A DNA stretch of 64,000 nucleotides from NCBI GenBank assembly GCA_008632985.1, contig QPGO01000176.1, positions 79,778 through 143,777 of the forward strand. The letters are read 5' to 3'. Numbering within the stretch: position 1 is the first letter of the stretch; every line of letters begins with the position of its first letter. The position numbers and the translations under genes are program-made. The notes below the pieces were generated by a model. It was not told the DNA's origin and made no database searches. It was given only the letters and a program-made list of their open reading frames with translations. The stretch is from Psammoneis japonica. Taxonomy: Eukaryota. Positions 5,011-60,187 of this stretch are shown here, piece after piece.

Positions 5011-5409
5011 CAAAAGCCACATGCATGCCGTTCTTCATTTGTATTTTATATTATCTACATTTCATAAAGGATAAAGGAAAACTGTTCATAGAAGTCTCAC
5101 TTTGCTGCGACTTGTCGTTTCGAGAGTTACGTCTATTGCCTCAACAACATTTTTGAAAAAGTTTCCGGCACTTTGTTGTGTAGACTTGGCTCAGTAGCAA
5201 TTCCTTTCATACTCCATTCCCAATTATGAACACCGACACATGCCATGGTACGCCGACAATTGAGTCGATTCGATCAATCGACGGAGATAGAACATGACGA
5301 CTCTGAATTATCACAAGTTGATAAAAACTAGACATTAGTTTAGATAAACTATCATAACATTGAAGTGTCCCCAAAATGAATTTACGCCTCGTCTTGATTT
5401 TGAATAGAT

Positions 5410-10722: not shown

Positions 10723-11029
10723 GGTTGCTCGACCCGGACTGGAAAGAAAATGGGTTTTGCATTGCCAATGCCGACAAGGACTTCTGGACCTCCCATGATC
10801 TTTGTTTCTACTTTGATTCGTTTGCCTGTGGGATCATTGTATTCTACCTCAAGATGTGACACGCTGGTACCCGACCACTACGTCTTTTCGTCAACCCTGA
10901 AGACGGTAACTGCCACCTCCTCATTCATGTCTTTTTCGAGTTGAAAACAGGACGGCGGAACTTGTGAATCGTCCGTTGAGCACGCACGTCGAGCTCGAAT
11001 TTTGCGTTCAACGGAAATCAGATTCTTAA

Positions 11030-14000: not shown

Positions 14001-15215
14001 GCTGGCCAAGCTTCCTTTGAAGAACAGCACAATTCTTTGTTGACAAGCACATTTTGCAACAGCAAAACAGATCATCACAAACATCCACTTTGGGCTCAGA
14101 CTGCTGTCCACTTTCCATGACACTGGAGTTTTTTGTCATGGCCACTCATGCAACACAAGCATGAGCCTTCATCAGCACCTGCTGCTCATGCTTGTTTGGT
14201 GTTTTGCAGTTGTGCTGACAGTCCAGCTGCTGCCAGCACAGCAACACCTCCAGGTTGAAGGAGGGCATCATGCACAACATTTGTGACTCTGCAACAGCAT
14301 CCTGGTGTGGTGGCTGCGGCAAATTGCATCAGCCAGCCAAATTTGCACCCGCACTTGCTCTTGGACATTGCACTGCTTGTCCAATCACTGACCAATGTTG
14401 ACTCCGCCTTGTGCACAGAGCTCCATTGTGTTTCATGCATTGCTCATCAGAGTGTTGTGTTTTAGACCATTGACAATGCTCTGACTGAAAGCTGGAGTTT
14501 GGTGTTGAAGTCAGCAGAGCCAGGAGACCCATGAGACCTTGACCATCTCCAAGCTTGAGCCCCACCTTCTGTTCTGCTGAGGACAAATTTGATGATGGTT
14601 TTTGCTGACATTGCAATGCCAAGCTTTGTGCACATGTGGCTGCCACCCAAGCTGTTTTTGCCACTGATCCTTTTCTTTTGAGTGACACAATGACAGATCA
14701 ATCCAAGCTTCAAGCTTCCCCCAGTTTCTGGTCTCACCATTCTTTGAAGCACAAACTTTGTCTTTGCATGCTCACACTTGATCAGATGATGCAGCTTTGA
14801 GGAAGGGTGTGGAGAGTGAGTTTTGGCTTCACAGGTGTTGCTCAAATTTGTCAGTCATGCCTGGCTGTCCTTGCTTGTGGATCCTCCATGGTGCTCCGTT
14901 GACAACAACAGATGGACCTTGCAAACATGTCTGCTCTCCACACAGTGCGCCACAAGCATGCCAGCTGTTGGCTTGCTGACCATGATTCCCAGATTGTTCT
15001 GCACCACACATGGTGCTCACTTGCACACCAGCAGCTTGCTCCAGCTGTGAGCAGCAGGGCACAATGGTGAAATGGGCGGAGCCCCCAACAGGGATGTCCT
15101 GATGGTGATTGTGAATTTGCAGCACAGTCTCAATTGTGCTGCAGGTGTTCTGCACATTTGAGAGCCCCAGCACACTGTCCAGAGACCACACTGCTGGTCA
15201 ATCATTTGAAAGAAG
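11030..15215. repeat. Unclassified degenerate repeat block, TpA-depleted
   Basis: About four TA dinucleotides seen in ~4.1 kb (11596, 12111, 12808, 14463); only short Cys/His-rich ORFs; no family recognised. Confidence 0.65.
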
Positions 15216-20790: not shown

Positions 20791-21189
20791 ACAAACTTAC
20801 GACGTTCGAATCTTTAGTTTCTCTGTACTAGAGAGTATAGTAGCTAGCTACTTCAGGATTGAGATGGCTCGAGCACACCCCCAGTGGCTCTGTCGATGGC
20901 TTTCTTCTCTTGCTCCGCCAGTTTTATTTAAAAAAAGATGCAGGCGATCAGCGACGAAATAGTCTGTCGACGACGAGCCTTGGGGCATGCTGAAACGAAT
21001 ACCTCAGCGTGGACCCCAGGCGAGAAGGGGATGCTGACGAGAAGACATCCAAAAGAAGGAGAGCAGTGTGGTGCAAAAACAAAATGATGACGTCAAAGTG
21101 TGCAACGGCATCGCAAGCGCTACGACCGCCATCGCAGTCCATTGACATGCGTGCAGAATAAATTACACGCAAGTGTGATTGCTGCATCG

Positions 21190-21536
21190 TGTGGGAAAGT
21201 AGCCAGAATTCTAAGATTCGTCTGCACTTTCAGTGATTAAAAGCTGTAATTGCGATACAACAATCAATCAGTAACTTTATTGTACCAAAAGTTGAGAGGT
21301 GATAATCAGTACGTTAGAAAGATTATGAGCAGTTTTTATGAGCAGATGCAGCTGCCATCTAAAGGAAACGCGAAGTTAAACAAGCGCGAAGCTAGGAACA
21401 AACATCGCATTCGTGACTCGGCTTCCGCGGGATTCGAGACTGAGCATCGCACACGGGGTTCGAATCTTGGATCTCTGATTTGAATCGTGGAGGTCCGATG
21501 TTGTTGTAAAAACATGCAAATATGAATATTGTCACA
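21190..21536 (-). repeat. 3' LTR of the young copia element
   Basis: TGTGGGAAAG...TTGTCACA, 347 bp; aligns without gaps to 27414-27760 with 17 substitutions; PPT GAAGGGAG on the minus strand at 21537-21544. Confidence 0.97.
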
Positions 21537-21579: not shown

Positions 21580-24500
21580 TTACCACTTAAGGAGCGATTT
21601 CCTGTGTTTAACGAAGAGATTCTGTGGTAGAGGTTTGGTGAAAATGTCTGCAATCTGATCCGCCGTATCAATTGGTAGAATTGATATGAGACCTTTGCGA
21701 ACATGGTCTTTAAAGTGGTGGAGAGTGAGGTTGAAGTGTTTTGTCCGAGGACGCATCTTAGGCAATCTCGCGATCTCCAATGCTCCAGAATTGTCTTCAA
21801 AAGCCTTACAATAACAATGTACGACTGGTGTCTTGGAAGGGACATTATGACCGTGATCCATAAATTCTTGAATTAGGTTCATAATTGGGATGGCGCTTCG
21901 AAGACTTTCCGAAAGAGCGATAAATTCAGCTTCAGTAGTGCTGAGCGCGATCTGAGTCTGTAGCTTGGACGTCCAGACAATCGGACATCCTGCATAGGTG
22001 ATGACAAACCCAGTTCGAGATTTGGAAGTGCCGACGTCATCGGGTGCAGTCAGCTTATTCCAATTGCCCACAAAGTCCGCGTCGGCGTGAACTTCAAGGG
22101 ACTTGTCCGTTGAGGGCTGTAGTATAATACCTTCAGTTCTGGTTGACCTTAGGTACTTACAGAGCCATAGTACGGCTTCACCGTGAGAAACCTTGGGATC
22201 GGAAGAAAAGCGTGCGACTTGGTGCACCGCGTAAGCGACATCCGGTCGAGTGCTCTTCTCCAGAAAATTGAGCTTGCCGATGATGGATCGGTAATGAAAG
22301 CTCCCTTGGAAAGCAGGCTCACTCATATGCCTGTGGAGGATCTTGGAGGAAGGAGCAGGAGTAGGCTTATCTGGTAGTCTCTTTGGAATGTTGGCCATCT
22401 CCAGCATCTGATTGATAAGGTGAGGTTGGGTAAGTTTCATTCTGCCGTCTGGTAGTGTCTCGACGTTGACACCGAGATAGTCGTCCAGAGTGCCTTGATC
22501 ATCAATGTCAAAATTCTCATCTCTGACATCCTGTATCGCCTTGTCAACAGCAGACTTGTCAGGGGATGCAAAGATGCCGTCATCGACATAATGGATGAAA
22601 ATGACATTGCCACGAAAATGCAGGCACTCATCAACCGCCGATTGTACGAAACCAATCCTTAACAATCCATCACGTAAGTGTTCTTGCCATACTCTCCCTG
22701 CTTGCTTTTGTCCATATAAGTTCTTGAGCAACTTCAGAACATGAGTCTTGCCATTGCCACATTTTGTTTCAATTCCTGCAGGTAACTCCATGTGCATGTC
22801 ATGTTCGATATCGGCATGCGGATGCGCCAGAACGAAGTCGACTTGGCGTGTATGCCACTTCTTAAGAATGGCAATGATCAGCAGGAGCCGGACAGTGAAC
22901 CAGAAGACCACGGCAGAGTAGGTCTGGAAGTGGTTGACAGCATGCTCTTGCTTTCCGCCGTGCACATTAAGTCGGGACTTCCATTTGTAGACGGCTTGGG
23001 TCTTAACATCTCTTTTGCGCTTCATAGACCATGCCGAAGGGAGAACATCAACATCGTCAGGTACGTCCTCTCTTGGAATGAGTATCCAATGTTTCCTTTC
23101 AATGTGATCATTGACCTCCTTAACACAGGCCTTGATAAATTCGTCTCTGTCAGGTTCACGCATAGCCTGATCAAAGTACATGGTGTCGGGGTCCGAGCTC
23201 GCCAGAAAAGAGACAGGTGAGTCCATATCGTCCTGCAGTTTGTAATCATCCTCGTGCATCGCATCATAATATGCCTCTGCCTCTGCATTGTAGGAGACAA
23301 TGCCTTGAGCCCGTTGCAGTTGGCTCTCGCGCATCCTTTCGGTCGGGCGTCGTTGTCGGCCGGACCTGCTGGCACTGGGTTGACCCATAGTGCGCTGTGG
23401 GTCAGATGGTGCGTCAGAATCATCTGGAGGCGTGTATAGCATTTCATCATCCGGTTGGGCATTATCAAATGAGTCATCAGTGGTAGACGTATCAGTAGGA
23501 TGCAGCAGCTGAGACGGGACATCCGAATTCGGCTCAGGTGGTTCCGTTGTGGCAGGGACTGATCCCTCAACCGGTACGTCACTTGATTTCCCAAAGATGT
23601 TGAAAGCACTCCTTGTCTTGAGTTGTCTGAAACCTGTAATGCCTTGCCATTGTGAGAATGTAGGAGGATTCCCAGCAAAAGGGCGAACGGTCTCAAAGAA
23701 GTCGTCAAATTGTACGTGAAATTGCGGCGATACGAGTCCGGTCTGCAAATTCAAAACCAAGGTAACTGAACCTGCGTGTCTTGTTGATGGTCCCAAATTG
23801 ATTCCTAACCTTGCCCTTGGGTCCCACTTAGGCAGCCTACCTCCTCCCTGCAACCGGTTGTGCAAGGCGTAGACGGGACAGCCGAAGGTATGGTGTTGTT
23901 TGAGATTAGGCTGGACCTTGACGGACGAGAAACGTTCCAGCGGAGAAGAGCCGTCCTCGTGATTCGGTAAGTGATTCTTGATCTCGTTTGAGTTCCTGAG
24001 AGCGCTTGGCCATAAGTTCAACTCAATAGCCGTTGGCCATCTCACTTTTGCATGCAGGAGTTGCTTCCGAGATTGCTCTTGGAGGTCCCTTATTCTTTTC
24101 TCCGCGATGCCGTTTTGGAAGTGGGCGTTGACCCCACAATAGGATATTGTTTGCTGTTGCTTCTTGACGTCTTGTATGAAAGCATTGTCAGCAAATCTTC
24201 CATTGTCGGCGTGGCAGTGTTGAATACGGACGTGCATCCGGCGTGCGAATGCCTCGAAAGCGTGCTTGGCTTCGAGCGTCTCGGCTGAGGTAAGTCCTTT
24301 CTGCAAATATATGTATCCCAATCCGCTGAAATGATCAACAAAAATTGTCGCTGCTCGATGCCTTTGTTTCGTAGGTCTCCCTTTGAGCTGTGGGATCAAT
24401 CCAGGAGTAGGACTCTCGAGCTGGTCGACGGATGCGGCTTCTCCAGGCGAAGTTGCCAAGTGGATTCGTCGGTTCCGCTTGGACTTGGAGCGCCATGGTC

Positions 24501-27339
24501 GTTTCGTCATGGCACCGTACAGGCAGCCGGCACATTTTGGGTTGTGCACCTTTGTAAGGCGTTTCGGTAGAATGCCTGGGGCGGCCAATAGCTTTATCAT
24601 TTTGAATGACATGTGGCCCAGGCGGTAATGCCAACGCAATAGTTCACCCTGGTCATCTGTGGCAGCAAGGGCGTCATCATTTGGTATGATGTTGATGGGT
24701 TCCGGCAAGTCCTGCTGTACCTCCGGTGTCGTGAAATCCCTTGGGTTTTCCTCGTCTGAGTCTGAACGACTTGCTCCGTCTGTTGGCTCAAATAAGACAG
24801 GAGCATCCTCATCAGCAGTGTTGCGTGCGTCTTGCGTCTCGGAAGGACGTGTCTCGGATGGACTTCTGAAGACGTCTGCATCAATTGCAGCCTCGTCATC
24901 ATTCGCAGTGCTCTTGTCGTCTGGTGGTATGATGTGAGCTTGACAGGCCACGTGCTCGATAGTTTCGACATCGGTTTGTTCTTCGACAGCGGCTGCAAAG
25001 GTCCGGTGTTTGTTGTAACCGGGTGCGGAGCGCATCTTGGCGACATTAGAGTTGGCGGACCATGGAATCAGGCGATGGCACTTGCGCTGGTCCCACATCA
25101 GCAACAGTCCGTCGTCCCTGGTCCAAGATACGGTTCCGTGAGGCTCTGGCGTGTGGTCATCAGCTTGTTGGCTCCATTGCTGCGGGCAGAGAAGACAATG
25201 AGGTGAGTCCGGCACGAGTGGCGCGTCTCGAATTTTGATGCTGTGCACTCGTCCCATGTCGTCCTCAATTGCCCACTGCACTGTTCCTTCTCCCTTAGCA
25301 CGCAAGTGGCCCTTGACACCGAGTGCCACTTTGTTGGATTTGCGAAGAGGACCAATGAAGTGTGCCTCGTTGTTGGACATGGCGCAGGAAGAATGTGAGT
25401 CGACACCGATTGCGAATGAGTCCGAATCGCAAGTGGGCTCCGTTCGCTCGGGACGGTGTGGTGTGGTTGAGTTGCACGCTCTAACCGTCTTGTGTCGCGC
25501 AATGACACAGTGAGCCTTCTTGGTGGCCACTCTGGAGCGGTGACCTGGCCTCGTCGAGGTGTGATGCCGTGCACAGCACCTCGTCGTTGGCCGTCGCTGG
25601 TGAGTCTTAACTCGTCTTGTGCCTGGTTCAGCCAGGACATGTGAGATGACCCACTCACCCAGCGTCATTGCGGCATGTGACAGGCACTTGCACTTTTCTG
25701 AAGGAAGGGATGGCATCATGAATGGCAGCATGATCCAGATCGATGCTGCACATTTCATGACGCCAGCGACCGCTGTCAGAAGCACTGACACAGTGACGGC
25801 CATCTGCAAGGACAGCAGCAGTGTCAGAGTGAACCTGCAGAGCAGTCGCTCTTGATCCACTTCGTTTGGGATGGTGGAGATGGCACTTGCGAAGGAGACT
25901 TTCTTGTCCGACGTGTCTGTGGATGGAGCAGACTGTTGCTTGCGGAGTCCACAGCCTTGGTTGCCCGGATCATCAGGTGAGTGTATGACCCAAGCAGTGT
26001 GATGTGGGCACCAGTGATGGTCGCGATTGTTGACGCGCTTGTGACAGTGCTGATGACCGTTCACTGTCTTCTCAGGAGCGTCCTCCTCAGGCGGGACTTT
26101 CTTCCAGGCTTCGTCCGCTTTCTGTCTCTGACGTGGAGTGGTCTTGGTCTTCCTTGACCGTGTGCTTCTTTCCTTGGTTGAACCAGCCTTGGCCTTCAAA
26201 GCTTTGGACAGCTGAAGGTTCTGATCCTTGATGGAGTCTACCTTGGCTGCAAGCGCGACGATTTGCTCTTCAGCCGGTGATGGTGCTCCCCACTTCTTCT
26301 CGCGCTTGAGGTTGGCACATTTGTTCAGTGCCGACGTCATGATTTGCGTCGGCGTGAATTCCTCACCGTCGTCGCACCTGTCCTTGTGTGACATGATGCA
26401 CTTGACGAATGCTTCGTCAGCAGCTGCGGCGTGTCCTTTGAACAGGTTCATGATGAGGTCGTCGCACTGCTCTCCTCTGGCTTGGAGTCCGTCAACGTTG
26501 AGCTTGGCGTGCTTGTTGAGCTCTTCGATGTCCGAGTTGACAGCCGCCATGTGCGCATCCAGGCTTGACAAGTTCTCGCGGAAGCAGTTGGTGGCAGAGC
26601 GTGTGTCAACGATGGCCTTTTGCGCAAGCAGCTTGAAGAACAGTGCGCTGATTTGATTTCCATTGATCGCACGGGAATCTGTCTCAGCCAACATCTTGTC
26701 TCTTGCTTCCTCCGCAAGGGATTGAGAGATCGCCTCGGCCATCTGCACATTGTTCTGTGCTTGTCGCGCAGGCAGATTCGCGAAGGTGTTGGCGTGGGTT
26801 CTGACATCCTGTGGAGTGAGCAGTCCGCACTCGGAGATGAGATCTCGTGGAGTTCCATTCGCATCGGGAATGGCAAGTGTGTCTCCTGCCCCTGTTTTCC
26901 ATCCTGCCTCGGCAGCTCGTTGACTGAGTGTCTCACAAAACCATTTGAGACCTTCTGAGTCGCCGTTGAACTCGCGCGGCAGCGGTGCAGCAGCGGCGTT
27001 CCAAAGCTTGAGGCCTTGCGATGTGCCGCAGTCGATGAAGTTGTTGGGACGGTGTTGACCTGGAGTCAACGCGAAGATCGGCAGTGGTGGCACAGGTGCC
27101 AATGGTGGTCCACCTGGCGGGACTCCACCTGGCGGGACTCCACCTCCGCCTCCTCCTCCACCTCCTCCGCCACCTCCTCCTGGAGGCACACCGGGAGGAA
27201 CGACTGGGGGAGGTGCAGGAGCAACTGGAGCGGCTGCAGGAGCAGGTGCTGTTGCCGGAGCAGCAGCAGTGGCAGGAGCTGCAGCGGGAGCTGCAACAGA
27301 GGCAGCCAGAGCAGCCGCGGTTCGTGTCTGCGCGACCAT
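21580..27339 (-). CDS. Copia gag-pol polyprotein, open but mutated
   Basis: 1919-aa ORF: gag, protease (GVDSHSS), GAG-pre-integrase WHYRLGH..C..C, integrase (SVDQL, HADNG, QNGIAEKRIR), RT (LYGQKQAG, YVDD), RNase H (ADADF, STTEAE, EDNSGA, ADIFTKPL); integrase precedes RT. Confidence 0.93.
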   Translation of the reverse strand: MVAQTRTAAALAASVAAPAAAPATAAAPATAPAPAAAPVAPAPPPVVPPGVPPGGGGGGGGGGGGGGVPPGGVPPGGPPLAPVPPLPIFALTPGQHRPNNFIDCGTSQGLKLWNAAAAPLPREFNGDSEGLKWFCETLSQRAAEAGWKTGAGDTLAIPDANGTPRDLISECGLLTPQDVRTHANTFANLPARQAQNNVQMAEAISQSLAEEARDKMLAETDSRAINGNQISALFFKLLAQKAIVDTRSATNCFRENLSSLDAHMAAVNSDIEELNKHAKLNVDGLQARGEQCDDLIMNLFKGHAAAADEAFVKCIMSHKDRCDDGEEFTPTQIMTSALNKCANLKREKKWGAPSPAEEQIVALAAKVDSIKDQNLQLSKALKAKAGSTKERSTRSRKTKTTPRQRQKADEAWKKVPPEEDAPEKTVNGHQHCHKRVNNRDHHWCPHHTAWVIHSPDDPGNQGCGLRKQQSAPSTDTSDKKVSFASAISTIPNEVDQERLLCRFTLTLLLSLQMAVTVSVLLTAVAGVMKCAASIWIMLPFMMPSLPSEKCKCLSHAAMTLGEWVISHVLAEPGTRRVKTHQRRPTTRCCARHHTSTRPGHRSRVATKKAHCVIARHKTVRACNSTTPHRPERTEPTCDSDSFAIGVDSHSSCAMSNNEAHFIGPLRKSNKVALGVKGHLRAKGEGTVQWAIEDDMGRVHSIKIRDAPLVPDSPHCLLCPQQWSQQADDHTPEPHGTVSWTRDDGLLLMWDQRKCHRLIPWSANSNVAKMRSAPGYNKHRTFAAAVEEQTDVETIEHVACQAHIIPPDDKSTANDDEAAIDADVFRSPSETRPSETQDARNTADEDAPVLFEPTDGASRSDSDEENPRDFTTPEVQQDLPEPINIIPNDDALAATDDQGELLRWHYRLGHMSFKMIKLLAAPGILPKRLTKVHNPKCAGCLYGAMTKRPWRSKSKRNRRIHLATSPGEAASVDQLESPTPGLIPQLKGRPTKQRHRAATIFVDHFSGLGYIYLQKGLTSAETLEAKHAFEAFARRMHVRIQHCHADNGRFADNAFIQDVKKQQQTISYCGVNAHFQNGIAEKRIRDLQEQSRKQLLHAKVRWPTAIELNLWPSALRNSNEIKNHLPNHEDGSSPLERFSSVKVQPNLKQHHTFGCPVYALHNRLQGGGRLPKWDPRARLGINLGPSTRHAGSVTLVLNLQTGLVSPQFHVQFDDFFETVRPFAGNPPTFSQWQGITGFRQLKTRSAFNIFGKSSDVPVEGSVPATTEPPEPNSDVPSQLLHPTDTSTTDDSFDNAQPDDEMLYTPPDDSDAPSDPQRTMGQPSASRSGRQRRPTERMRESQLQRAQGIVSYNAEAEAYYDAMHEDDYKLQDDMDSPVSFLASSDPDTMYFDQAMREPDRDEFIKACVKEVNDHIERKHWILIPREDVPDDVDVLPSAWSMKRKRDVKTQAVYKWKSRLNVHGGKQEHAVNHFQTYSAVVFWFTVRLLLIIAILKKWHTRQVDFVLAHPHADIEHDMHMELPAGIETKCGNGKTHVLKLLKNLYGQKQAGRVWQEHLRDGLLRIGFVQSAVDECLHFRGNVIFIHYVDDGIFASPDKSAVDKAIQDVRDENFDIDDQGTLDDYLGVNVETLPDGRMKLTQPHLINQMLEMANIPKRLPDKPTPAPSSKILHRHMSEPAFQGSFHYRSIIGKLNFLEKSTRPDVAYAVHQVARFSSDPKVSHGEAVLWLCKYLRSTRTEGIILQPSTDKSLEVHADADFVGNWNKLTAPDDVGTSKSRTGFVITYAGCPIVWTSKLQTQIALSTTEAEFIALSESLRSAIPIMNLIQEFMDHGHNVPSKTPVVHCYCKAFEDNSGALEIARLPKMRPRTKHFNLTLHHFKDHVRKGLISILPIDTADQIADIFTKPLPQNLFVKHRKSLLKW

Positions 27340-27400
27340 GGTGACAGCAGAGTAAAGCAGAATCGAGAGCTTAAGATCGATTGACTTAACTTGTAGATTT

Positions 27401-27413
27401 CGCAGAGGAAGCG
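27401..27413 (-). promoter_or_regulatory. Putative primer-binding site complementary to the D-arm of initiator tRNA-Met
   Basis: Plus strand CGCAGAGGAAGCG(TG) abuts the 5' LTR and resembles eukaryotic tRNAiMet ...GCGCAGCGGAAGCGTG... Confidence 0.55.
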
Positions 27414-27760
27414 TGTGGGAAAGTAGCCAGAATTCTAAGATTCGTCTGCACTTTCAGCGATTGAAAGCTGCAATTGCGATGCAACAATCAATCAGTGACT
27501 TCACTGTGCCAAAAGTTGAGAGGTGACAATCAGCACGTTAGAAAGATTGTGAGCAGTTTTTATGAGCAGATGCAGCTGCCATCTAAAGGAAACGCGAAGC
27601 CAAACAAGCGCGAAGCCAGGAACAAACATCGCATTCGTGACTCGGCTTCCGCGGGATTCGAGACTGAGCATTGCACACGGGGTTCGAATCTTGGATCTCT
27701 GATTTGAATCGTGGAGGTCCGATGTTGTTGTAAAAACATGCAAATGTGAATGTTGTCACA
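27414..27760 (-). repeat. 5' LTR of the young copia element (hypermutated copy)
   Basis: Colinear with 21190-21536; 13 TpA sites converted to TG/CA. Confidence 0.97.
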
Positions 27761-27858
27761 CATCGCACTTCTGGTCTTTCCGCTTCTGTTGCATGGAGGT
27801 TCAAAGCGTGTTTCAAAAAACTTGAAACACCATTGTCAAAAGCCGCCATTGATTCGGT

Positions 27859-30800
27859 TGAACTGTTTGCCATGTGGTGATGTTTTGTGTCATGAATTTG
27901 TGTGTAGAACACAATGTAATTTAGCGACAATGAGGATTCGACGTGAGTGCTGAGTCGAGCTCACTTCTTGAAAATAGTAGCACGATGTTACACCTTTTCT
28001 TTTAGTCTATTCCCTAGGTTCCTAGTGCACGTCTTCACAGGGTAATTTATTCACTTTATCACAGCCATATGCCGCATGTAGTGACAATATCATAGTATTG
28101 ATGATTTCGCTTGCGATTGTTTCGCAACAACAGCTTTCGTTCCGCAAGGTCAGGGATGACGAATGAACATCTACGAGCACAAGACGGTGCTCGTGCTTGA
28201 CGAGTTGGTTACTCCCGGGTGTGGTTCAACTATGGTGCGCATTGACAACTACAGTGTCGACCATTCTGATGTGTCTCACAGCGAACACACACGGACACAG
28301 AGCGCAACCCATGGATCTGGGGACGCCATTTCCATTCCGAAGTCATCTCGCGGAGGCAACGCGCGCGTGAGCAATTTGAAATCGCTGGGTGATGCGGCAC
28401 AACGTCAGTCAGTCGCTGAAATTGCATGTCATGTGCAGACACAAAACATCACAACGCTGCACAATTCATGATGTTGTGCTTTGCACTGGCCACTGGCATC
28501 GATCAAGTGGATCGTAGGAACGTTCTTAGTTCGCTGCACAAGTCACGGCAGTCTCATTGTGCCGGCAGACCCATTGGCAATGCAAAACTGGCTGAACAAA
28601 CGACAATGAAAAAGCGCGCATCGTGCTCACTTTTCACACAATTGTGAGTTTTTTGACCACACGCACCACCGACACCTGCCAAAACAGCACCATGGCGGCC
28701 ATTGCAGCTGTGCGAGCCGCGCGCCGTTGCCCAGGCTTCATGGACGCTGGTTCCGTGGCCCTGGCCAATGAGCAGGGAATCCACTCGGTCGACGAACTGC
28801 TTCACTTGGACGACCATGAGGACGTGACCTCACGCAAGGCCGCTCGCCGCCTTGGAGGAGCTGCTCCTCCAGCAGACCCAGCAGCTCCACCCCAACCCAA
28901 CTTGGGTGCTGCTGTCTCTCTCCATGCAGAGATGAGTCTAAAGCTTGCTGCTTGTGCCACTCGCCACTGCTCCCGCATCTCCCATGCTCCACCTGTGAGG
29001 TCCTGGACACCCTGCCCAACATCTTTGAGAAGGACTGGACGAAGATGATGGAGTCTGTTTCAGAGCACCTTCACACCTGCCGCAGTGAAACCAAGATGCC
29101 GCTTGCCTGTGTTGTTTGCAATGAACCTGCTGCACCTGCTGAGGCCGATGACGACCAGGACAACTGCTGCGGGGATGCTGTTGCCAAGATGATTGCTTGT
29201 GAATCCCATGCCATGACTGGGGCAGATCCCCAGCCCACTGAAACCTTTGTGGTGTGCAACCACAAGGTTTGGGAGATCACAGAGCAGGTGTTGCCAGGGA
29301 GCACTTGTGCTGGGCTTGTGTCAAGTCAGCACAATGTGCACAGGATGGCAGGACAGCCTGTCAAAACCTGCACGATCACTTCCTTGGCCCCAACAACATG
29401 GACAACATGGCTGGTGCAGCCAAGAAGTGCCTTGCAGGCCTCTCACACCATGGGGAGAAGTGCAGCTGGAACTTTGAGCATTGCACACGTGTTCATGTGG
29501 AGCAGCACACCATCCTTGATGGACTCAGGGGGAGCATGGCTGCACCAGCATTGACAAACAATCCAGAGTTTGCCATCTGTTGGAGAGAGCGTCAAAGATC
29601 CGAGAAGCTTGACTCAGTTAAGATGCAGATTGTGGCCAGTCCCAACCTGCACAGCAACTTTGACACATGTGTGGTCCTGTGCAAGGACTTCCTCAAACAG
29701 CCCAAGCCCAAGGACTCCAACTCTTCCTTGTGTGTTGCAGCTCTGAAGGCTCAGAAGCGCAAGCAGTGCAAGAAGGATGTCATCCATGCACAGGATGCAG
29801 AGGACAAATGCTGTCCCAATGAAGAGCATGGCTGGTTCTCGCCCAAGGCATGAAAGCGGCTTAAGACTCTGCACAAGAATGACCACGATGGTTCCAAGAT
29901 GGATGCCATGAAGCAAGTCAAGGCTCTTGCCAAGAACCTCCCTGCTCAAAGACACCATGACCAAGAACGGGCATGATGAGAATGGTGGTCTTGAGCCTGG
30001 ATGGAAGAAGCAGGAGATTGACAGCCTGCAACGGTCATGCATCTCAGCCCATTGCAGACCTTGCACCTGACTCAGACCACCATGACGGCAGCCACACGCA
30101 AGGAATCTCAGTCTGAGATTGATGGTCATGCAGACACAAGTGCATCAGGCAGGTGTGCTTTAATTTTACTTGACTGTGACCACCCAGTTGACATCACAGG
30201 ATGCAACCCCAACCCAGGCTCTGGCAAAAGCTTGCGCACCGTCAGTGGCGCCCTGATGTGCACGGATCCTGCCATGGGCCAACAACACATCTTGGCAGTG
30301 CACCAAGCCATCCATGTCCCGCATCTACAGCACAACTTGTTGGGCCCCATTCAATTGTGGCTGAATGATGCAGGCCCAAACTTGAAACCCAAGTTCCCAC
30401 TGTCAAAGCCCAACAATCAATCACATGCAATGATGTTGGAAGACATGGATGACTCAGATGAGTCAATCACACCACTGGAACTCCATGAAGTTGTGAGCTG
30501 CTTTGCCACCTCCAAACTGACTGTTTCAGAGTGCAAGGCTGCTGTGCAAGATGGCACAGTCCAGGAACTCACCTGTGAAACCCCCGCATGGGACCTGCAG
30601 GAGTCGGACTTCCCGGCCAGGGAGGGTGCCATGACAGATCCCCTTGGCTGCGTTCCTGAGATCGGGGACAATGCATGTGCTCAAATGTGGATTGTGAGCA
30701 CAAAGCTCTTGCGAAACGCAGCACAAGAGACCTCCAACGCTCTTGGGAACAAGCCACTGTGAAAAATCTTGAACGCGTGTGATGACTGTGTGCTGCTTCT

Positions 30801-33800
30801 TGCATCCATTGGCCTCTCTTTGCTCAAGACAATGAAACAGGGCTTGAAGGCAAAAGCGGAACAGTTGGCCAAGAATTGGTCCATCAGCCTCAAAGATGCA
30901 GAAAATGCAGCCAAGGTCACTGCTCAATGTGGAGCCCAAACTGTGTTGCACCCGGCGCTGTCACATCAATTCCACACCAATGACCAACAATTGCACCACA
31001 GACGCATTGCAAAAGAGATGCACTCTGACACCCTCTTCTGTCTGTCAAGTCAAGATGTGGCAATGTCTGTGTGCAGGTTTTTGGTGTGGCCAGTGGCTGG
31101 GCACGCGTCTGTCCATTGAGGTCCAAAGGGCTTGTCCACGAGGCACTGTCCCCACTCTTTGCCCAGGATGGGGTGCCACATGCCATGACAGCAGATGGTG
31201 CAAAAGAAGAGATGCTTGGTCAGTTCAAGTCAAAAGCCAGGGAGGCTGATTGCTGCATTTGACAGACCGAGCCTCACATTCCTTGGTCCAACTTTGCTGA
31301 AGGCACTGTTCGCAAGCTCAAGCGAGGTGTCGGGGATGGATGGTCAAGACTCAGGCACCCAAACATCTTTGGGATGATTGCCTTGAACTTGAAGCCTTGA
31401 TCCACTCCAACACTGTGCATGACATTTGCGAGCTTGATGGCAAAGTGCCGGAGACAGCAGTGTCAGGACAGACAGCCAACATTTTGCACACATGCAAGAT
31501 CGGATGGCATGACTGGGTCATGCACAGGCACCCAGGCCCCAGTGGGGATGCAGGACCAGCAATGACCGCCAAGATGCTCAAAGAGAATGGGCAAGTTGTC
31601 CACAGATCCTCCTGCCAGGCTCTCACCCCAGAGGAACGGCATCACAAGACACACCTGGCGTTGAGGGAAAAATTCCATGCAATGGTGGAGGCCAAGCTTG
31701 GTCCCGGGATGGCCATCAGCAACATTGATGACCCCGATGCGATCACTCCCACCTTTGATCTGCACAAGGACGACTCAGGACAAGACCCATCTGGTGCCCT
31801 GGAGGCCGACACTCCACCTGACACAGCTCACAATGTCTGCATGAACGCCAAAGTTTTGCTGCCACATGGGGACATGCACCAAACCGGCAAGATCAAATGG
31901 CGGAAGCTGAACCCGGACGGAACACCGGCAGGACAAGCCAGCGCCAATCCCACCCCAGACACGCTCGTCCATGAGGTGGAATTCCCTGATGGTCAAGAGG
32001 CCGAACCAGTGGCTGATGTCATTGCCAAGAACATGTTCGCCCAATGTGACAATTGGGGCAACCAGCATCCATTGCTGGATGCTGTCGTGGACCACAAGAC
32101 CAATGAGCATGTCATTCAGATGCAGGACATGGTCTCCCAAGACAGTGGGGGGCACTGATTCACTCGGAAAATGACCAAAGGATGGCACCTTTGTGTTCGT
32201 TGGAGAGACGGCACCACCTCTTGGGAGCGACTTGCAGATTTGAAAGATTCAAACCCTGTGGAGCTGGCTGAGTGCACCAGAGTGTGTTCTGTTGAAGACA
32301 AACCAGCCTTTGCTTGGTGGGCTCCACACACCTTCAAGAAGTGAGCAGATTGTGGCCGCCATCAACAAGCACTGCCACAAGCAGACTCACAAGTGTGGGA
32401 TGCATGTTCCCAAGACTTGTGAAGAAGCCGTCGAGATTGATGAGGCAAATGGGGACCACCAACAATGGCAGAATGCCATTGACAAGGAAATGGGTGTGGT
32501 CAAGAAAGCCTTTGTTTTCATTGATGATGATGAGAAGCTGGCAGGGTGCCAGCACATCAGATGCCACTTGGTCTTTGATGTCAAACTGCAGGACTTCAAG
32601 TGCAAGGCCAGCTGTGCAGCAGGGGGACACACCACTGAACCTCTGGCTGCACTGACATGTGCCAGTGTTGTTTCTTGTCAGAGCGCAAGGACAGAGTTCA
32701 CTCTTGCCACCCTCAATGACCTGGAGGTTAAGGCCACAGATGTCGAGAATGCCTGCATCACCACTCCCAACAGCAAGAAGACAACTGCAACTCCAGGGCC
32801 AGAGTTCAGACCTGATGCAGGCAAAAGAGCAATTGTCCAGCATGTCCTTTGTGGATTGAAGAGCGCTGGTGCTTCTTTCAGAAATCATTTGGCCTCATGC
32901 ATGAGACATCTGGGATGGTTGCCATGCCTGGCAGATCCAGACATCTGGATGAAGGAAGAGGTCCAACCCGACGATGGGTTCCGGTGCCATGCCTGCGCAC
33001 TGTTGTGTGTCGATGATGCTTTGATGGTGCACCATGATGCCACATGTGCTCTCAAGGAGATCAACCGATGCTTCAAGATGAAGCCCGGTTCAACAGGTGA
33101 TCTTGAGATGCATCTTGGAGCCAAGATTTGCAAGACAGAGCTGCCAAATGGTGTCCATGCTTGGGGCATGAGTTCCAGCAAGTGCGCCCAACAGGCCATC
33201 AAGAATTCAGAGGTGCGTCTTCATGCAAAGTGCCCGGGGATGATGTTGCCATGCCAGGCAATTGCTCCCTTCCCACGTGACTGCCCGAGGTTGATGCCAC
33301 TCCTGAGCTTGACACTGATGAAGCTCAGTTTTGCCAGTTGCAGGCAGCTGTTCTGCAATGGACAGTCAAACTTGGACGTGTGGATCTCATTGCTGAGGTT
33401 TCTGAGCTTGCCTCCTCCCTTGCAGAAAAGACACAATGCCAGGCTGGTGTTTGATCTGACACATCCGGAGATTGACATGCCTGACTTCAAGGAATGTGAC
33501 TGGAAGTCAATTTGTGGGGATGTCAAGGAGGCGATTCCCAGCAATGTGCCAATCCCTCTAGACAAGGAGGTTGATCTGCACCTGTTTGTAGACTCTGATC
33601 ATGCCAATGACAAGTTGACAAGGCATTCACACACAAGCTGTTTCATTTGCTTGAACATGGCTCTGGTTGCATGGTTTTCCAAGCGCCAGAGCACCGTTGA
33701 GACTTTGGTCTTTGCTGCCAAGTTTGTTGCCATGAAGCAGGGCATGGAAGCCTTGCGTGGTCTGAGACACAAGCTGCGAATGATGGGCACACCATTGTCT

Positions 33801-34364
33801 GGTCCATCCTGCATCTGTGGCAATGGCATGTTCATCATTCACAACACACAGAGCCCTGAGTCCACTTTGAAGAAGAAGTCGAACTCGATTTGCTGCCACG
33901 CTGTTAGAGAGTCAGTGGCAATGGGTGAATCCCTCACTGGACACATCCGATTGGAGTGCAATCCGGTGAACATTGCCACCAAGATCATGTGCAGTGGCAT
34001 GAAACAAGATGGACTTGTGAGCATGGTGCTTCACAATTTGTCAAGTCCTGAGCCAGTTCCCTCAACCCACTGGGTTTGTTGCAGGTTGTTGGGGTTCCCT
34101 TGTTGCCTCTGTGCAGCTGAATGTGACCAGACTGTAAATTGAGTCAAGCCAACTCAGTGTCTGCCTCGTCAACTTGAGGGGACTGAACAATTTACCATGT
34201 GGCAATGTTGCACATGAATTTGCATGCAGAATGTAGAATTTGGTGACAATGAGGACTCGATGTGAGTGCTGAGTTGAGCTCACTTCTTGAAAACAGTGGC
34301 ATGATGTTGCACCTTTTCTTTTAGTCTGTTCCCCAGTGCACATCTTCACAGGGCAATTCATTCA
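27859..34364 (+). mobile_element. Older degenerate Ty1/copia element (second family) with LTRs at ~27859-28053 and ~34184-34364
   Basis: Related TGAA...TTCA LTRs, PPT TTGAGGGGAC before 34184, gag (HDHFLGPNNMDNM), protease (EIDGHADT), integrase, RT (LCGLKSAG, LLCVDD), RNase H (FVDSDHA, LKKKSNSI); many stops and frameshifts; no matching TSD found. Confidence 0.88.
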
Positions 34365-35479
34365 AAGTTGTGCAGATGAAGTTGCCTCAAGAGCACCACC
34401 AACGATGGCTCTTAAGTTTTTCCCATTTTTAGGGTGGATCAACACACCAAAAAAAGAAAAAGGGGGGATGCACTGCAGCGACAACAAGAAAACTTGTGAG
34501 TCAAGCATGTGCCAAATCAACACTCCCTGTGAATGAAGACTTGTCGCGCCATGTTGCTGACGCAACGGAGCCCCAAATCCCTGTGTTCCATCAACAGCAT
34601 GATGTGCTCAGCAAGCTTTTGCTGCTTTTCAGACAAATGCTGCTCTGTCTGTTTCAACAACCATGTTTTGATGGGCCAAGCAAACAGACAACTTCCTGCA
34701 CTCAAAGGCTTGAGAGTGACATGGACTCAAGGCCGGAGAGATGCACTTGATGTGCACCCTGACCTCCAGACTTAACTGGCAACACCCACACCACCAATTT
34801 CAACAGCACAAGAGTGCTGAAGCAACTTTGACAAAAAAAAAGAGAAGCCACCAGCATCGGAGTTTAGCTCATCCATGGCTCCATTGGATGCTCTGCCAGC
34901 ATTGTCAGTCACACTCCTTGAATGATGAAGCAAAGAGAAGTGCTCGATCCTTCTCTGCATTGGAGTGGACTCAGGTTCAACGCTCTGCAGATGGGGCCCG
35001 TTGCCCTTCTCCTTTGCCTGTGGCACCATCATTGTCCCGGCACCAATCACTGACATTTTGTTGCGGCAATTTGTGCTTGCATCAGTGTGGACAGATTTTT
35101 GAAAAATGGCAATGTTTGAAACCAGAAGAAAATGGCAGGAAACAAATGTTTTTTTTCACTGTCACATTTTGTGTGGATCATGTGAGCCCCATGACATCAG
35201 CAGAACACACACAAACAAACAAGCACCAAACTCCAAGATCATTTGTTTCCTTCTTGCAGCAACCTTCAAGCACACACACCCACACCTGCACACACAGCAT
35301 CATTTCATTGTTTTGCTGACCACAACACATGGGCAACAGGCAGTGCTGGATTTTGTTGCTGACACTTTTCCTGCCAAATTTTCCAACAAAACATGCTTTG
35401 CAGTGTTGTCCTGAGAAGTTCATGCACAAAAAGAGAGAGGTGAGATGAACTCCAGTTTTTCTGCCATTTGCACTTGTTG

Positions 35480-35900
35480 CTCACTGCTTGCGCTGCACTT
35501 TCCATTGTTTCTTGACAGAGTCAATGAACCCATTGCATGGGAGCCCACAATTGTGTGGAAGACAAAGTTTCTTTTGTCTGAAGTGGTGTCACTTGATTTG
35601 GTTGCATGTGTGGCCAATTTGCTGTGACAACAACAGGATGCAGGAGAGCCTTTTTACATTCTGCCAGTTGTGCAAACTCCCATCAAGCCGCCATTGTGCC
35701 ATGCTTTTCCAAAAAATGAGCCCATTGCATGGGAGCCTGCAATTGTGTGGAAGACAAAGCTTCTTTTGTCTCAAGTGGTGTCACTTGATTTGGTTGCATG
35801 TGTGGCCAATTTGCTGCAACAACAGGATGCAGAAGAGCCTTTTTGCATTCTGCAAGTTGCACAAACTCCCATCAAGCCGCCGTTGTGTCACGCTTTTCCA
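35480..35900. repeat. ~200 bp tandem duplication within a TpA-depleted block
   Basis: AATGA.CCCATTGCATGGGAGCC..CAATTGTGTGGAAGACAAAG...CCCATCAAGCCGCC at ~35523 and ~35715. Confidence 0.85.
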
Positions 35901-36362
35901 TTGATCTGCATTTCATGTTTGGGATGTGACCTTGCAGGTGGCAGCTTGATTGGCTTGAAAAGCATGCACTGTTCTGCAGCACTTCTTTTGGCTCTCAGCC
36001 TTTTGGGCTGTTCGACGCAAAGCAAAGCATTGCTTGGTGCTCCACCTCCTCTTTTGTGTGTTGGCATGCCAAGCAAACAACTCCTTGGAGCCACCACATG
36101 AGGCAAGATCATTGTGCCAGTGCAGAACAGCACAGCAGAAACCTTCCTCTGTGACACTGTTTGATGCTGTTTGCAAGGAAAAGAACAGACAAAGTGGTCA
36201 CAGCAAAGATTGGTTGGATGTTGCAACAAGCAATCCAGGAAGATCAATGAACTTTTCTCCCTTGTGGTTTTGTTTTTGAGGAAGAGTGGCCTTGGGTCCA
36301 TTTTTGGACTCACAATGTTCTGCCTTTGGGGTTTTGCAATGCAAAGGGCCTCCATCTGCTGT

Positions 36363-39100
36363 TGAATGAATTGCCCTGTTGTCACAAGCACCAGGGACAA
36401 GACCAAAAGAAAGACTTGCGACATTTTTGCTGCTTTTCCAGAAGTGAAATCTAAACCTGAGGAACAGCTCTGTGACCAATCGCCAATGACGAGGCACACA
36501 AAACTGACTCAAATTGATTGCATGGCAAATTCTTCAGTCCCCTCAAGTTGATGAATTGAAGAGTCGGCTTGATCCAATTTGCTCTCTGACCATGTTTGGT
36601 CACTCAAACATGACAAGGAAACCCTGGTGGCCTGCACCAGAAAAACCCCAAAAGGGGCAAATGAACCCCATGTGACAGACAACTGGTCTTCACAGATGTT
36701 GTGGAGGATCATCCCCACAAGCCCATCTTGCTTCATGCCACCATGCATGATCTCAGTTGTGAGGTCTGCCAGATTGCATTCCAAGTGAATGTCCAGTCAG
36801 TGACTCACCCATTGCCACCAACTCCCTTGCGGTGTGGTGACAGATGAAGCTCGACTTCTTCTTCAAAGCAGACTCTGGACTTTGTGCACTGTGGATGACT
36901 GACATGTTGTTCTCAGGGATGTGGGGTGGGCCAGTCAAGAATGGTGTGCCCATCATCCTTGACTTGTGTTGCAAGCAGTGCAACTGCTCCATGCCTTGCT
37001 TCATGGCTGCAAACTCCACTCCAAAAACCAAGGTTTCAATTGCACTTCAGTGCTTTGAAAACCATGCTGTCAAGGCCATGTTTGTGTGAATGAAGAAGCC
37101 AGTGCGTGAATGCCTCCTTGTCAAGAACTTGTCATTTGCACGATCCAAGTTGACGAACAAGCACAGATCAACCTCCAAGCCTGGAGGCTCTGGTGCATTG
37201 GGTGGGATGGCTTCATGTGCACGTCCACATGAAATGACTTCCAGTCACATTCCTTGAAGTCAGACATGTCAATGTCGGGACGTGTCGGGTTGAACACCAA
37301 CCTGGCATCATGTCTTGCCTTGAGGTGTCCACAGACATGGAAGAAGACAGCCTCAAGATGACCCTTCCTGGGCATGGCAAGACACAAGGTTGTGAGCTCA
37401 GAAACCTCCATCATCAGATCAATGTGTCCCAGCTCCACCATCCATTGCAAGACACCTGCCTGCGACTGGTGGAGCTGGGCATCCTCTGCCTCAAGCTCAA
37501 GTGACACATCTAACTCAGGATGACAATCCTGTGGAAATGGAGCCAACACCCAGGATGGCAACATCTGTCCAGGGTGGCGTTCGTCCAGATGCGCCTTCAC
37601 ATTCTTGACAGCCTGCTGGACACACTTGCTGAAGCTGATGCCCCATGCATGGACACCATTTGGCACTTGTGCTTCTCAGATCTTGGCACCCAGTTGCATC
37701 TCAGGGTCGCCAATTGAGCCAGGCTTCATCTTGAAGTGATGATCCAATTTCTTGAGTGTCCTCAAGGCATTGCTTGTGGTGCACCATCAGTGCAGTGTCC
37801 ACACACAGCAGCACATGTGCGCAGTGCCAGAACCCATCCTTGATTCGGACACTTCCTTGAGCCACACATCAGGATCTGCCAGGCAAGGCTTCCACCCAAG
37901 ATGATGCATGCAGGAGGCTGGGCAATTCCTGAAGGCTGTGCCTGCACTCTTCAAACCGCAAAGCGTGCACTTGACTGTCACATGCCTCCCTGCATTGTGT
38001 CCAAACTCTTGGCCTGGAGTCGTTGTGATCTTCTCACTGTCAGGTGCAGCAACACAAGCATTTTCAATGTCAGCTGCCTCAACCTCTGAGTCATTCAGGG
38101 CAGCAAGAGTGAAGGCAATCTTCACACTCTCACATGACACAATGCTTGCACATGCCAAGGTGCTGGGAGTGTCAGCGGCATGTCCACCAGCTGCACAGCA
38201 TGCCTTGCACTTGAAGTCTTGCAGCTTTGTGTTGAAGACCAAGTGACATCTGATGTGCTGGCATCCCACCAGTTCCTTGTCATTGTCAATGATCTCAAAC
38301 ACCTTGTTTGCAATGCCCATTTCCTTGTCTGCAGCATCTTGCCACAGGTGGTTGCCATTTGCCTGGTCAATCTTGACTGCCTCATCGCACATCTTGGGAG
38401 TGCACATCCCACACTTGTGCACCCATTTGTGATGCCACTTTTGTTCATTGCAGCAACAATCTGCTGCTGTTTCTTAAAGGCACATGGAACCCACCACACA
38501 AAGGCTGGTTCATCCTTGATTGATTGGGCTCTGGCATGCTCAGCTGGCTCAACCAGGCTGGATTCCTTCAAGTCTGCAATGCGTTCCCAAGTTGTGGTTC
38601 CATCCTTCCAGCAAACACAAAAGTGCCATCCTTCAGTCATCTTGTGCATGGTTTGGTGTCCTCCACCACTGTCCTGCAGGAAAGTGTCATCCTTCTGGAC
38701 TGCATGCCCATCAGTCGTGTGATCAACAAGAGCACCCAGAAGCAAGCACTGATTGCCTTTGTTGTCACATTGTGCAAACATGTTCTCAGCTGTGATGTCA
38801 GCTGCAAACTCTGCTTCCTGACCATCAGGCATGCACAAGCATCTGCAATGGGATTGGCGCTGGCTCTGCCCACTGGTGTTCCATCTGAACTGGGCTTGCA
38901 CCGCTTGACCATCCCGGTTTGTTGGGTGTCCCCGTGAGGTGGCAATGCTTCTGAGTTTGCACAAACATCAAAAGCAGCATCAGGCACATCGTCCTTGCCG
39001 GGTGCACTCACAGGAGCATCCTGGTCAGCTTCATCCTTGTGCTGATCAAAAGCAGGAGCAGTGGCATGGGGGTCATCAACATCTCCAACATCAGAAACCC
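36363..39100 (-). mobile_element. 5'-truncated degenerate copia (RT-RNase H plus 3' LTR 36363-36536), related to the 27859-34364 family
   Basis: Minus-strand fragments VGCQHIRCHLVF, LCGLKSAG, ADPDVW, DMSDFKECDW, ALKKKSSFI; PPT TTGAGGGGAC followed by a TGAA...TTCA LTR. Confidence 0.85.
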
Positions 39101-39419
39101 GCAGAAAAGGCCACGAGTCACAGGTCATTGAACCCCCCCATCTCATGGAGTGTGCACACACGCAAACATTGGTTGACCCCCTTCCAGACTGAAATTGACA
39201 TTCACTCATTTGGAGCACAACATTTTCATTTATTTTCACCATGCTGATTGGTGTGTTTTGTGCTTGTTGCTCCCAGATGTGTTTTGTTCAATGTGCACTC
39301 ATTGACTTGAATGCCAACACACCAAGCAACATGGCAGCATCGCTCCACCATCTCTTGACGATTGCATTTCCTTCCAACTGAGACCTGTTCATTTTCACAT
39401 TGTGCACGCATTTCCACCA

Positions 39420-39720
39420 AAAGCGCTGCATTTCCGTCTTCATGATGCACGTCAATCATTCAGCAAAATTTTCACCTTTTTCTGTTTCCCCCTCAAAACC
39501 CATCCTCACCATCGACTCATGATTGCATCTCTGAACAGTTGAATTTCATTCCAGCTGAAACATGTTTGTTTTCACATCAGACATGGCATTGCCGCCAAAA
39601 GCACTGCATTTCCATCTTCATGATGAACGTCAATCATTCAGCAAAATTTTCACCTTTTTCTGTTCCCCCCCCAAAAACCCATCATCACTGTCGACTCATG
39701 ATGTTCCGTTTGCAGCATTT
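39420..39720. repeat. ~180 bp tandem duplication
   Basis: CTGCATTTCC.TCTTCATGATG.ACGTCAATCATTCAGCAAAATTTTCACCTTTTTCTGTT at ~39426 and ~39604. Confidence 0.8.
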
Positions 39721-52200: not shown

Positions 52201-52259
52201 CCTCAGACGTGCGGCGTTGACTGTGCGGGCTTGGCATTCGGAAACTGCAAACAAGATGG

Positions 52260-60010: not shown

Positions 60011-60187
60011 GCGAGCCAAAAATGCGCGCTTCACCGTCCTCTGTCTGCGATGATTCGCGTTTTTTTTCTTCGACGCGAAAATCCATGATCACCATGATGT
60101 GTCCGTTTGTCCCTTAAATACTGAGCCCATGTTCATATCTGTCACTCACGCTTTCGTTACATGTTTGCCGCTCCCTACAGAATCAAC

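Follow-up and report, generated by a model that had tools for sequence, protein, structure and literature searches.

A TpA-depleted, CpG-rich tract in a young copia retrotransposon of Psammoneis japonica suggests two mutational layers of different speed

The window analysed here is a 64,000-nucleotide (nt) stretch of DNA from the diatom Psammoneis japonica (assembly GCA_008632985.1, contig QPGO01000176.1, positions 79,778 to 143,777 of the forward strand; positions below are counted from its first letter). It holds a young Ty1/copia retrotransposon whose gag region is almost devoid of the dinucleotide TpA (TA) and still rich in CpG (CG), and several older, decayed blocks that are short of both. 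This locus raises the question of whether the two dinucleotides were removed by one process or by two, and in which order. With fair confidence, we regard it as probable that the same silent domains, those that hold transposons, are subject to two mutational processes: a fast mutator of TpA and a slower change of C to T at CpG. A preliminary description of this DNA had proposed such an order, speaking of two separable mutational layers and favouring an enzymatic process for the faster one.

Loss of TpA in the young copia element

We observed that the tract at 25050-27340 (minus strand), which is the gag and protease end of the element and measures 2291 nt, contains 6 TA (at 25129, 25296, 25482, 25608, 25984 and 26239; observed/expected ratio, o/e, 0.06) together with 147 CG (o/e 0.79), and that TG and CA are in excess (o/e 1.43 and 1.57, respectively). 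The element's pol part (21583-25049, minus strand), where TA is near-normal (o/e 0.52) with sparse losses relative to other copies, has 32.8 TA per kb; by this standard 75 TA would be expected in the tract (Poisson P(≤6) = 6e-25), and about 92% of the TA is gone. No deficit is seen for CG, which reaches 64.2 per kb in the tract vs. 53.8 in pol, and the GC content is 0.573 vs. 0.497. The 763 codons of the tract include no tyrosine codon, compared with 23 in the 1156 codons of the rest of the frame (p 1e-5), and cysteine amounts to 3.1% vs. 1.1%; both the absence of tyrosine and the raised cysteine are as expected for a conversion of TAY to TGY or CAY. The erasure is uneven: it is densest at 25130-27340, sparse in pol, and partial in the leader and the 5′ long terminal repeat (LTR), where about 420 nt retain 10 TA.

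The two LTRs of the element (347 nt each, with TG..CA ends, minus strand) show how these changes arose. The 3′ LTR (21190-21536) has kept its TA (19 TA, 18 CG), whereas the 5′ LTR (27414-27760) is partly erased, with 13 of the 19 TA converted and 6 kept. The pair differs at 17 places, with no transversion, and 13 of these differences oppose a TA in the 3′ LTR to TG (7) or CA (6) in the 5′ LTR. Two further differences are extra T>C changes, one or two bases from converted TA sites, and the remaining two touch CpG (21234/27458 and 21448/27672). Altogether, 16 of the 17 can be read as A:T>G:C changes in the 5′ LTR, and they affect 13/19 TpA but only 3/165 other A/T positions. The restriction to TpA is thus strong without being absolute, as about one in five changes falls at another A, outside TpA. 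Reverse transcription builds both LTRs from the same template parts, and they are therefore identical at insertion; for this reason, the differences arose in the chromosome after integration. The change is a loss of TA, not a gain, and it took place in situ, on chromosomal DNA, once the element was integrated. In addition, the host flank beside the mutated LTR (27766-27904) has no TA vs. 6.4 expected (P 0.0017), suggesting that the erased tract extends beyond the end of the element. The preliminary description had characterised gag as lacking TA and yet CpG-rich, quoting two CpG-rich strings that are indeed present near 26970 and 26255, and had counted 13 TA against 2 CpG changes in the LTR pair; the former was borne out by our counts and the latter is exact.

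The copia family has many copies, since the depth of the contigs of one sequencing run, X1, is about 2000 on the element vs. about 58 on the single-copy flank. Sequence data for the other copies came from three runs of one sample, used as contigs, and the alignment of family-copy contigs on the element yielded 709 variable places, 40 of which are listed and constitute a biased sample of per-site fates in gag. At 22 of the listed places the window reads TG (9) or CA (13) where other copies read TA, so that both strands are affected, and the reverse occurs once; the tract accounts for 8 of these places and pol (22620-24969) for the other 14. Likewise, in the comparison with the contigs of a second run, X2, the window has C/G against T/A at 96 places and the reverse at 20, with 10 transversions. 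Among the listed places, some TA losses in pol are common to part of the copies (shares 0.19-0.8), and these were possibly inherited.

CpG sites changed far less. In the LTR pair, TpA was altered at 13/19 sites vs. one or two of about 19-20 CpG (Fisher p from 2e-4 with two CpG changes to 4e-5 with one). At 27458 the mutated LTR reads CG, and the other LTR and all three covering X1 contigs read TG; one of these three may be the left LTR's own contig, aligned on both LTRs. This difference is probably a CpG gain caused by an off-target T>C change in the mutated LTR, which leaves one CpG loss in the pair, 27672 being the only plain CpG-to-TpG candidate. The CpGs found only in the window, at 25383, 25848 and 27458, all correspond to C-A-C turned into C-G-C on the strand of the changed A; new CpGs seem to be produced, at a low rate, by the TpA mutator. 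Among the listed places, 24915 and 25371 are sites where the window copy probably lost a CpG. The net CpG change in the tract is near zero, in agreement with its CG density and with its arginine codons, 30/44 of which are CGN vs. 42/73 in the rest of the frame. Expressed as hazards, TA loss amounts to 1.15 for the 5′ LTR and to about 2.5 for gag, and CpG loss to about 0.05; the ratio in the LTR pair is 22.5 (at least 4 by the exact interval). The earlier statement that TA conversion is much faster than CpG loss therefore holds, with a per-site difference of about 22-fold.

Other features of the element agree with a recent insertion of the Ty1/copia type. Directly outside the LTRs stand two perfect 5-nt copies of the target-site duplication CATCG (21185-21189 on the left and 27761-27765 on the right). 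The gag-pol frame (21583-27339, minus strand) is open for 1919 codons from the ATG at 27339, and its domains, gag_pre-integrs (residues 930-980), SH3_retrovirus (1181-1251) and RVT_2 (1463-1690), follow the copia order; the element thus combines LTRs, a target duplication and gag followed by integrase and RVT_2. In the TA-free part the openness of the frame is weak evidence, because TA loss deletes TAA and TAG in every frame. A tblastn search of the 64-kb window with the polyprotein returned no match except the element itself. For the gag part (polyprotein residues 38-800) no protein relatives were found at E ≤ 0.001 among candidates 1076-3425 long, shorter proteins not having been searched. 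Pol-protein matches in metagenomes (three loci, 36-55% identity, with a normal TA o/e of 0.63-0.73) were considered as ancestors and discarded as too distant. The genes around the element encode a PI4-kinase, Duc1 and an ATP-grasp protein, all of them eukaryotic, and the Atlas cluster nearest to the ATP-grasp protein has its highest frequency in Bacillariophyta, a first lead towards a diatom.

A separate observation concerns run X2, whose kind can only be guessed; it covers genes only and is RNA-like. Its contigs derive from other, TA-intact copies (1.4-5% different), and they skip pieces of 70-113 nt of the copia element between 22782 and 27100 on the plus strand. Thirteen joints were examined, and at about 9 of them the skipped pieces carry canonical plus-strand ends (GTACGT..CAG, GTAAGT..TAG, GTGAGT..CAG and GCAAGT..CAG). 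Judged by these ends, the pieces look like those removed from a multiply spliced transcript antisense to gag-pol, which would probably be non-coding, with 23-44 stops per frame in its spliced form. Residual TA falls within these putative introns in 4/6 cases, which is not significant by a hand estimate.

Old blocks and the order of the losses

The window contains five blocks in which both dinucleotides are scarce: 29000-42050 (TA o/e 0.034, CG o/e 0.27), 11150-15150 (0.015 and 0.105), 5550-7850 (0.026 and 0.23), 47250-51900 (0.031 and 0.35), and 63350-64000 (0.055 and 0.31), which runs off the window. The values for the first two agree with the preliminary description, in which these older relics were said to have lost both TA and most CG. 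Pooled, the blocks have a TA o/e of 0.03 and a CG o/e of 0.26, compared with a CG o/e of 1.02 in host DNA, and their TG and CA reach 1.86 and 1.81 vs. 1.17 and 1.15. The genes beside the erased domains keep a TA o/e of 0.59, and the domains switch state within 50-300 nt. A second TA-free, CpG-rich stretch, with 3 TA (o/e 0.09) and 46 CG (o/e 0.86), was found at the edge of an old block (28251-28950).

The order of the losses was assessed by cutting the window into 128 bins of 500 nt. We classified 64 bins as normal and 48 as having lost both TA and CG; six had lost TA and kept CG, four had lost TA with CG at an intermediate level, and none had kept TA and lost CG. Three of the six bins that lost TA and kept CG correspond to a natively TA-free, 9-nt periodic coding repeat at 60.7-62.5 kb and were rejected as not part of the phenomenon; the other three correspond to the gag tract and to 28251-28950. 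The excluded repeat (60659-62486) lies in an open frame of 810 codons (60125-62557, plus strand) and is made of tandem units such as GACGGCAAG, reading Asp-Gly-Lys/Glu, with a CG o/e of 1.4-1.7; it is a look-alike in composition, to be excluded when scanning for TA-erased domains.

A balance of the four dinucleotides concerned accounts for the losses. The sum of TA, CG, TG and CA per kb is 242.7 in host DNA, 241.3 in pol, 250.1 in gag and 247.5 in the old blocks. Relative to pol, gag shows an excess of TG+CA of +28.6 per kb and a TA deficit of −30.2, with no contribution of CG; relative to host DNA, the old blocks show an excess of +85.5 per kb, set against −37.9 for TA plus −42.8 for CG (−80.7). 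Other dinucleotides barely shift.

Two pairs of repeats allowed us to follow CpG inside the old blocks. A 195-nt repeat is present as a copy that keeps TA and CG (27862-28055, plus strand) and as a partner inside an old block (34190-34364), in which 9/10 aligned TA and 5/6 CG were converted; in 183 nt this pair differs by 29 transitions and 2 transversions. The second pair consists of inverted, decayed arms that are 69% identical, at 31.7-34.1 kb (31725-34036, plus strand) and 36.7-39.1 kb, within the block at 29000-42050, and it differs by 473 transitions and 250 transversions in 2333. Here CG is matched by CG at 4 sites vs. 51 where it is opposed to TG or CA. There are also 98 double differences between TG and CA vs. 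12 in the GT and AC control, from which the ancestral split between TA and CG can be drawn only very loosely. These comparisons establish that the CpG loss of the old blocks is real decay.

The TA that remains is not a random sample. In the erased domains 53 TA survive, of which 16 are TTAA and 17 are TTAG/CTAA (62% together), and these contexts make up 131/1076 TA (12%) in host DNA (odds ratio 11.9, p 2e-16), which is no more than a proxy for the ancestral contexts of the old blocks, a point to be held against the comparison. In the TA-kept part of the young element they account for 19/132, or 14% (p 3e-10). Conversely, ATAT, GTAC and ATAG/CTAT are absent from the 53 survivors, and ATAC/GTAT occurs twice. 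Within the young tract, TTAG/CTAA represents 0/21 known converted vs. 5/16 retained sites (p 0.01), and the single TA kept by both copies of the 195-nt repeat is TTAG. Purine-TA-pyrimidine sites vanish, and TTAA and TTAG/CTAA persist. The contexts of surviving CpG, by comparison, spread only 0.7-2.2 fold. A four-base preference as strong as that of TA is to be expected of an enzyme that reads sequence, not of spontaneous chemistry.

The old blocks can be identified as transposable elements (TEs) only weakly. A Pfam search of 82 stop-to-stop open reading frames of the erased blocks gave only two sub-threshold hits: an RVT_2 relic (37790-38473, minus strand; E 2e-5, below the cut-off) in one arm of the inverted pair, which is the sole recognisable TE protein trace among these frames, and an ankyrin-repeat trace (Ank_2, 27.0 bits vs. 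a cut-off of 27.3; 5338-5730, minus strand) at the edge of a block erased of TA and CG. The latter may be the end of a gene or a gene scrap inside the erased domain. We also noted that the erased DNA at 25050-42000 has many long overlapping open frames without a family match, for instance one of 632 codons at 32244-34139, because TA loss deletes TAA and TAG in all six frames. Finally, a short repeat family has copies at 28001-28250 and 34001-34500. The segment 27905-28250, flanked by a TA-free stretch on either side, is TA-rich (15 TA in 250 nt) and may have arrived later or have been spared, and the family's copy in the old block is erased.

A proposed two-layer mechanism and its alternatives

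The mechanism that we propose has two layers. The first would be a mutator that acts on DNA after integration and turns A:T into G:C on both strands, almost exclusively at TpA, which becomes TG or CA; this mutator would work in tracts and be able to erase most of the TA of a tract before ordinary mutations build up. Most likely, adenine in DNA is deaminated enzymatically and the resulting hypoxanthine is read as G when the strand is next copied; a candidate enzyme would be a polynucleotide deaminase, as a preprint on Bigelowiella natans proposes for ADAT2-like proteins (bioRxiv 10.64898/2026.01.13.699255). The chromatin state that carries CpG methylation may recruit it. The second layer would be a slower change of C to T at CpG, with little dependence on the neighbouring bases, which continues long after TA is exhausted and most likely reflects the deamination of 5-methylcytosine where transposon DNA is methylated. 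In the young copia element, the reach of the first layer would comprise gag, the 5′ LTR and some 140 nt of adjoining host DNA, and the second layer would have barely begun there.

Several points weigh against this proposal. Only one young element and one short edge in the window show the state in which TA is lost and CG kept, and the ancestral gag sequence is not recoverable without relatives and with 40 of the 709 variable places listed. Two of the borders (near 47050-47250 and 63000-63300) combine an already low CG with a few remaining TA. The assignment of the second layer to the decay of 5-methylcytosine, which we consider most likely, draws on the CpG footprint and on the literature on Phaeodactylum tricornutum. 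The loss of CpG is not clock-like, as it reaches 83% at 2 transversions in 183 nt in the 195-nt repeat vs. 76-86% at 250 in 2333 in the inverted pair; the age of the old blocks is consequently poorly calibrated, and CpG loss could be episodic. Lastly, TA loss and CG loss end at the same borders to within about 300 nt, so that the two layers are not independent in their targeting. The claim of two separable layers is thus sustained for time, chemistry and site selectivity, but not for space.

The last two points would also be explained by a single machinery with two arms, that is, a heterochromatin-coupled deaminase system that hits TpA fast and CpG slowly, or one provided with a C>T arm of the DNMT4/RID type, CpG loss being enzymatic too. 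This is the alternative that survives best, and we consider it unlikely. It gains from the shared borders, from the rapid CpG loss in the 195-nt repeat, and from the fact that the sole clear CpG loss of the LTR pair sits in the mutated LTR. In addition, ADAT2-type enzymes for which A as well as C in DNA is a substrate of deamination are cited in the B. natans preprint (bioRxiv 10.64898/2026.01.13.699255), and DNMT4 enzymes, relatives of the methyltransferases of fungal repeat-induced point mutation (RIP) and methylation induced premeiotically (MIP), are described as widespread in diatoms (PMC9998398). Against it, CG density is not lowered in a tract that has lost about 92% of its TA, the dependence on flanking bases is strong for TA and weak for CG, and, in the larger region studied in B. 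natans, just 1/211 mutations was not AT>GC (bioRxiv 10.64898/2026.01.13.699255).

It is less likely still that the state with TA lost and CG kept reflects space instead of time, namely DNA that the TpA mutator reached and cytosine methylation did not, in which case it would be stable and not an early stage. At four borders (11000-11150, 42100-42250, 51950-52250 and 28251-28950) the TA-free zone does run 150-700 nt past the CpG-poor zone into CpG-rich DNA, and part of these extensions may be host sequence. However, the element is independently young, having no transversion in its 347-nt LTRs and an intact target duplication, and its youth means that time alone explains the CpG that it has kept. 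Moreover, in P. tricornutum the young TEs are the methylated, DNMT5a-controlled class (PMC9998398).

We find it very improbable that the tract was not mutated in place, be it because RNA or cDNA was edited before integration, because an older mutated copy served as the donor of a conversion, or because assembly or polishing merged members of a large family into a mosaic. The size of the family, the presence of some pol TA losses in part of the copies (some of which were hence possibly inherited), and the fact that at several tract positions, among the listed places, no X1 contig carries the letter of the window (share 1.0) speak for this group of readings; the last point leaves some room for a mosaic and also counts against the proposed mechanism. 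Nevertheless, the 13 TpA differences must postdate integration, since both LTRs are copied from the same template; the host flank is also without TA; and the perfect target duplication indicates that both ends belong to one insertion. A tract converted from a donor would itself have lost TA and kept CG, leaving the order of the layers unchanged. Editing before integration, of the ADAR or APOBEC type, was rejected because it requires the same edits in both LTRs, which instead show the 13 differences. A native composition, with codon choice or low complexity making the family's gag TA-poor and GC-rich, has next to no probability: the first 90 codons are indeed an Ala/Pro/Gly-rich low-complexity stretch, and a natively TA-free coding repeat exists at 60.7-62.5 kb, but other copies read TA at 8 listed tract places, the 673 codons past that start have no tyrosine, and the non-coding LTR changed likewise against its twin.

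Returning to the two-layer proposal, we put forward tentatively a wider scenario. Diatoms may possess a sequence-selective DNA adenine mutator that hits new transposons and a little of their flank in bursts, within a time too short for one background substitution, and that would serve as a first, irreversible genome defence. CpG decay would then follow slowly, as a second layer, within the same chromatin domain. The mutator would also make CpGs at CAC, and it might be shared with Rhizaria and possibly be old in the SAR group (stramenopiles, alveolates and Rhizaria). The contrast between a TA layer that is complete in the tract and a CpG layer that has hardly started could serve to date the silencing of transposons with two clocks, one fast and one slow, and the flanking-base rule offers a concrete fingerprint for in vitro tests of candidate deaminases. 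TA erasure, by removing TAA and TAG stops together with tyrosine codons, makes dead elements mimic long open frames, which is a trap for gene prediction.

Comparison with known systems

ADAR-type A-to-I hyperediting acts on repeat RNA, and the changes described here resemble it in being A>G with T/U preferred before the edited A. The 5′ U preference of ADAR is cited in the discussion of the B. natans preprint (bioRxiv 10.64898/2026.01.13.699255). Unlike ADAR, which acts on RNA, the process in P. japonica left the LTRs of one integrated copy different and seems to have affected the host flank, so that its substrate is chromosomal DNA.

RIP, in Neurospora and other ascomycetes, changes C to T mainly at CpA and thereby creates TpA. 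The erased domains resemble RIP in their dense transitions confined to repeated or mobile DNA, their dinucleotide preference and their sharp edges, as well as in the killing of transposon genes and, presumably, in an association with cytosine methylation of the same DNA. RIP itself was discarded as the cause, since it requires C>T at CpA, creation of TpA and a lower GC content; here TpA is destroyed, GC goes up, and TG and CA reach an o/e of 1.8-1.9.

With regard to the slower layer, DNMT5a-dependent methylation of TEs is documented for P. tricornutum only (PMC9998398; PMC12344493). As in the CpG decay of methylated TEs, CpG here is reduced (o/e 0.1-0.35) only inside the transposon-holding domains, its products are TG and CA, and the genes remain at about 1.0. 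It differs from plain CpG decay in that the loss is nested within, and lags behind, a second and faster layer.

Our literature search turned up no account of a diatom with TpA loss or hypermutation; one lead, PMC9258296, was discarded because its "hypermutation" concerns antibodies only. So far, programmed or targeted A:T>G:C mutation of chromosomal DNA has been described in a single preprint of 2026 and for one alga, the chlorarachniophyte B. natans, in which integrated giant-virus and virophage DNA undergoes hypermutation restricted to TpA (Mettrop et al., bioRxiv 10.64898/2026.01.13.699255). According to this source, 230/231 mutations in two viral regions of mutation-accumulation lines were A>G or T>C, all of them at TpA, and in the larger hypermutable region the rate of AT>GC was 6.85e-7 vs. 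3.9e-9 for GC>AT per site per generation. This gap is similar to or larger than that between TA and CpG in the LTR pair, and the measured rates, together with the flanking-base selectivity described above, lend support to the enzymatic process favoured in the preliminary description. Neither CpG nor diatoms nor flanking-base context is mentioned in the main text of the preprint. The present analysis adds the order in time, the mass balance, the detail of CpG gain and the flanking-base rule.

Common to the two systems are the near-exclusive A>G or T>C changes at TpA, which yield TpG or CpA whichever strand is hit, and their confinement to bounded foreign or mobile DNA, at a rate that in B. natans is orders of magnitude above background. 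B. natans also has clusters poor in TpA and rich in CpA and TpG, and reverse-transcriptase and DDE domains are enriched among its TpA-poor genes. The two systems differ in that the host here is a diatom, a stramenopile, and the targets are retrotransposons and repeat blocks; in that the erasure is near complete, with a TA o/e of 0.03 vs. a Rho of 0.45 in the nucleocytoplasmic large DNA virus (NCLDV) region of B. natans; and in that the process is read here from the sequence and not in real time, as in the mutation-accumulation lines. If the parallel is true, a signature that reaches saturation on the retrotransposons of a diatom would point to a widespread principle of genome defence that mirrors fungal RIP.

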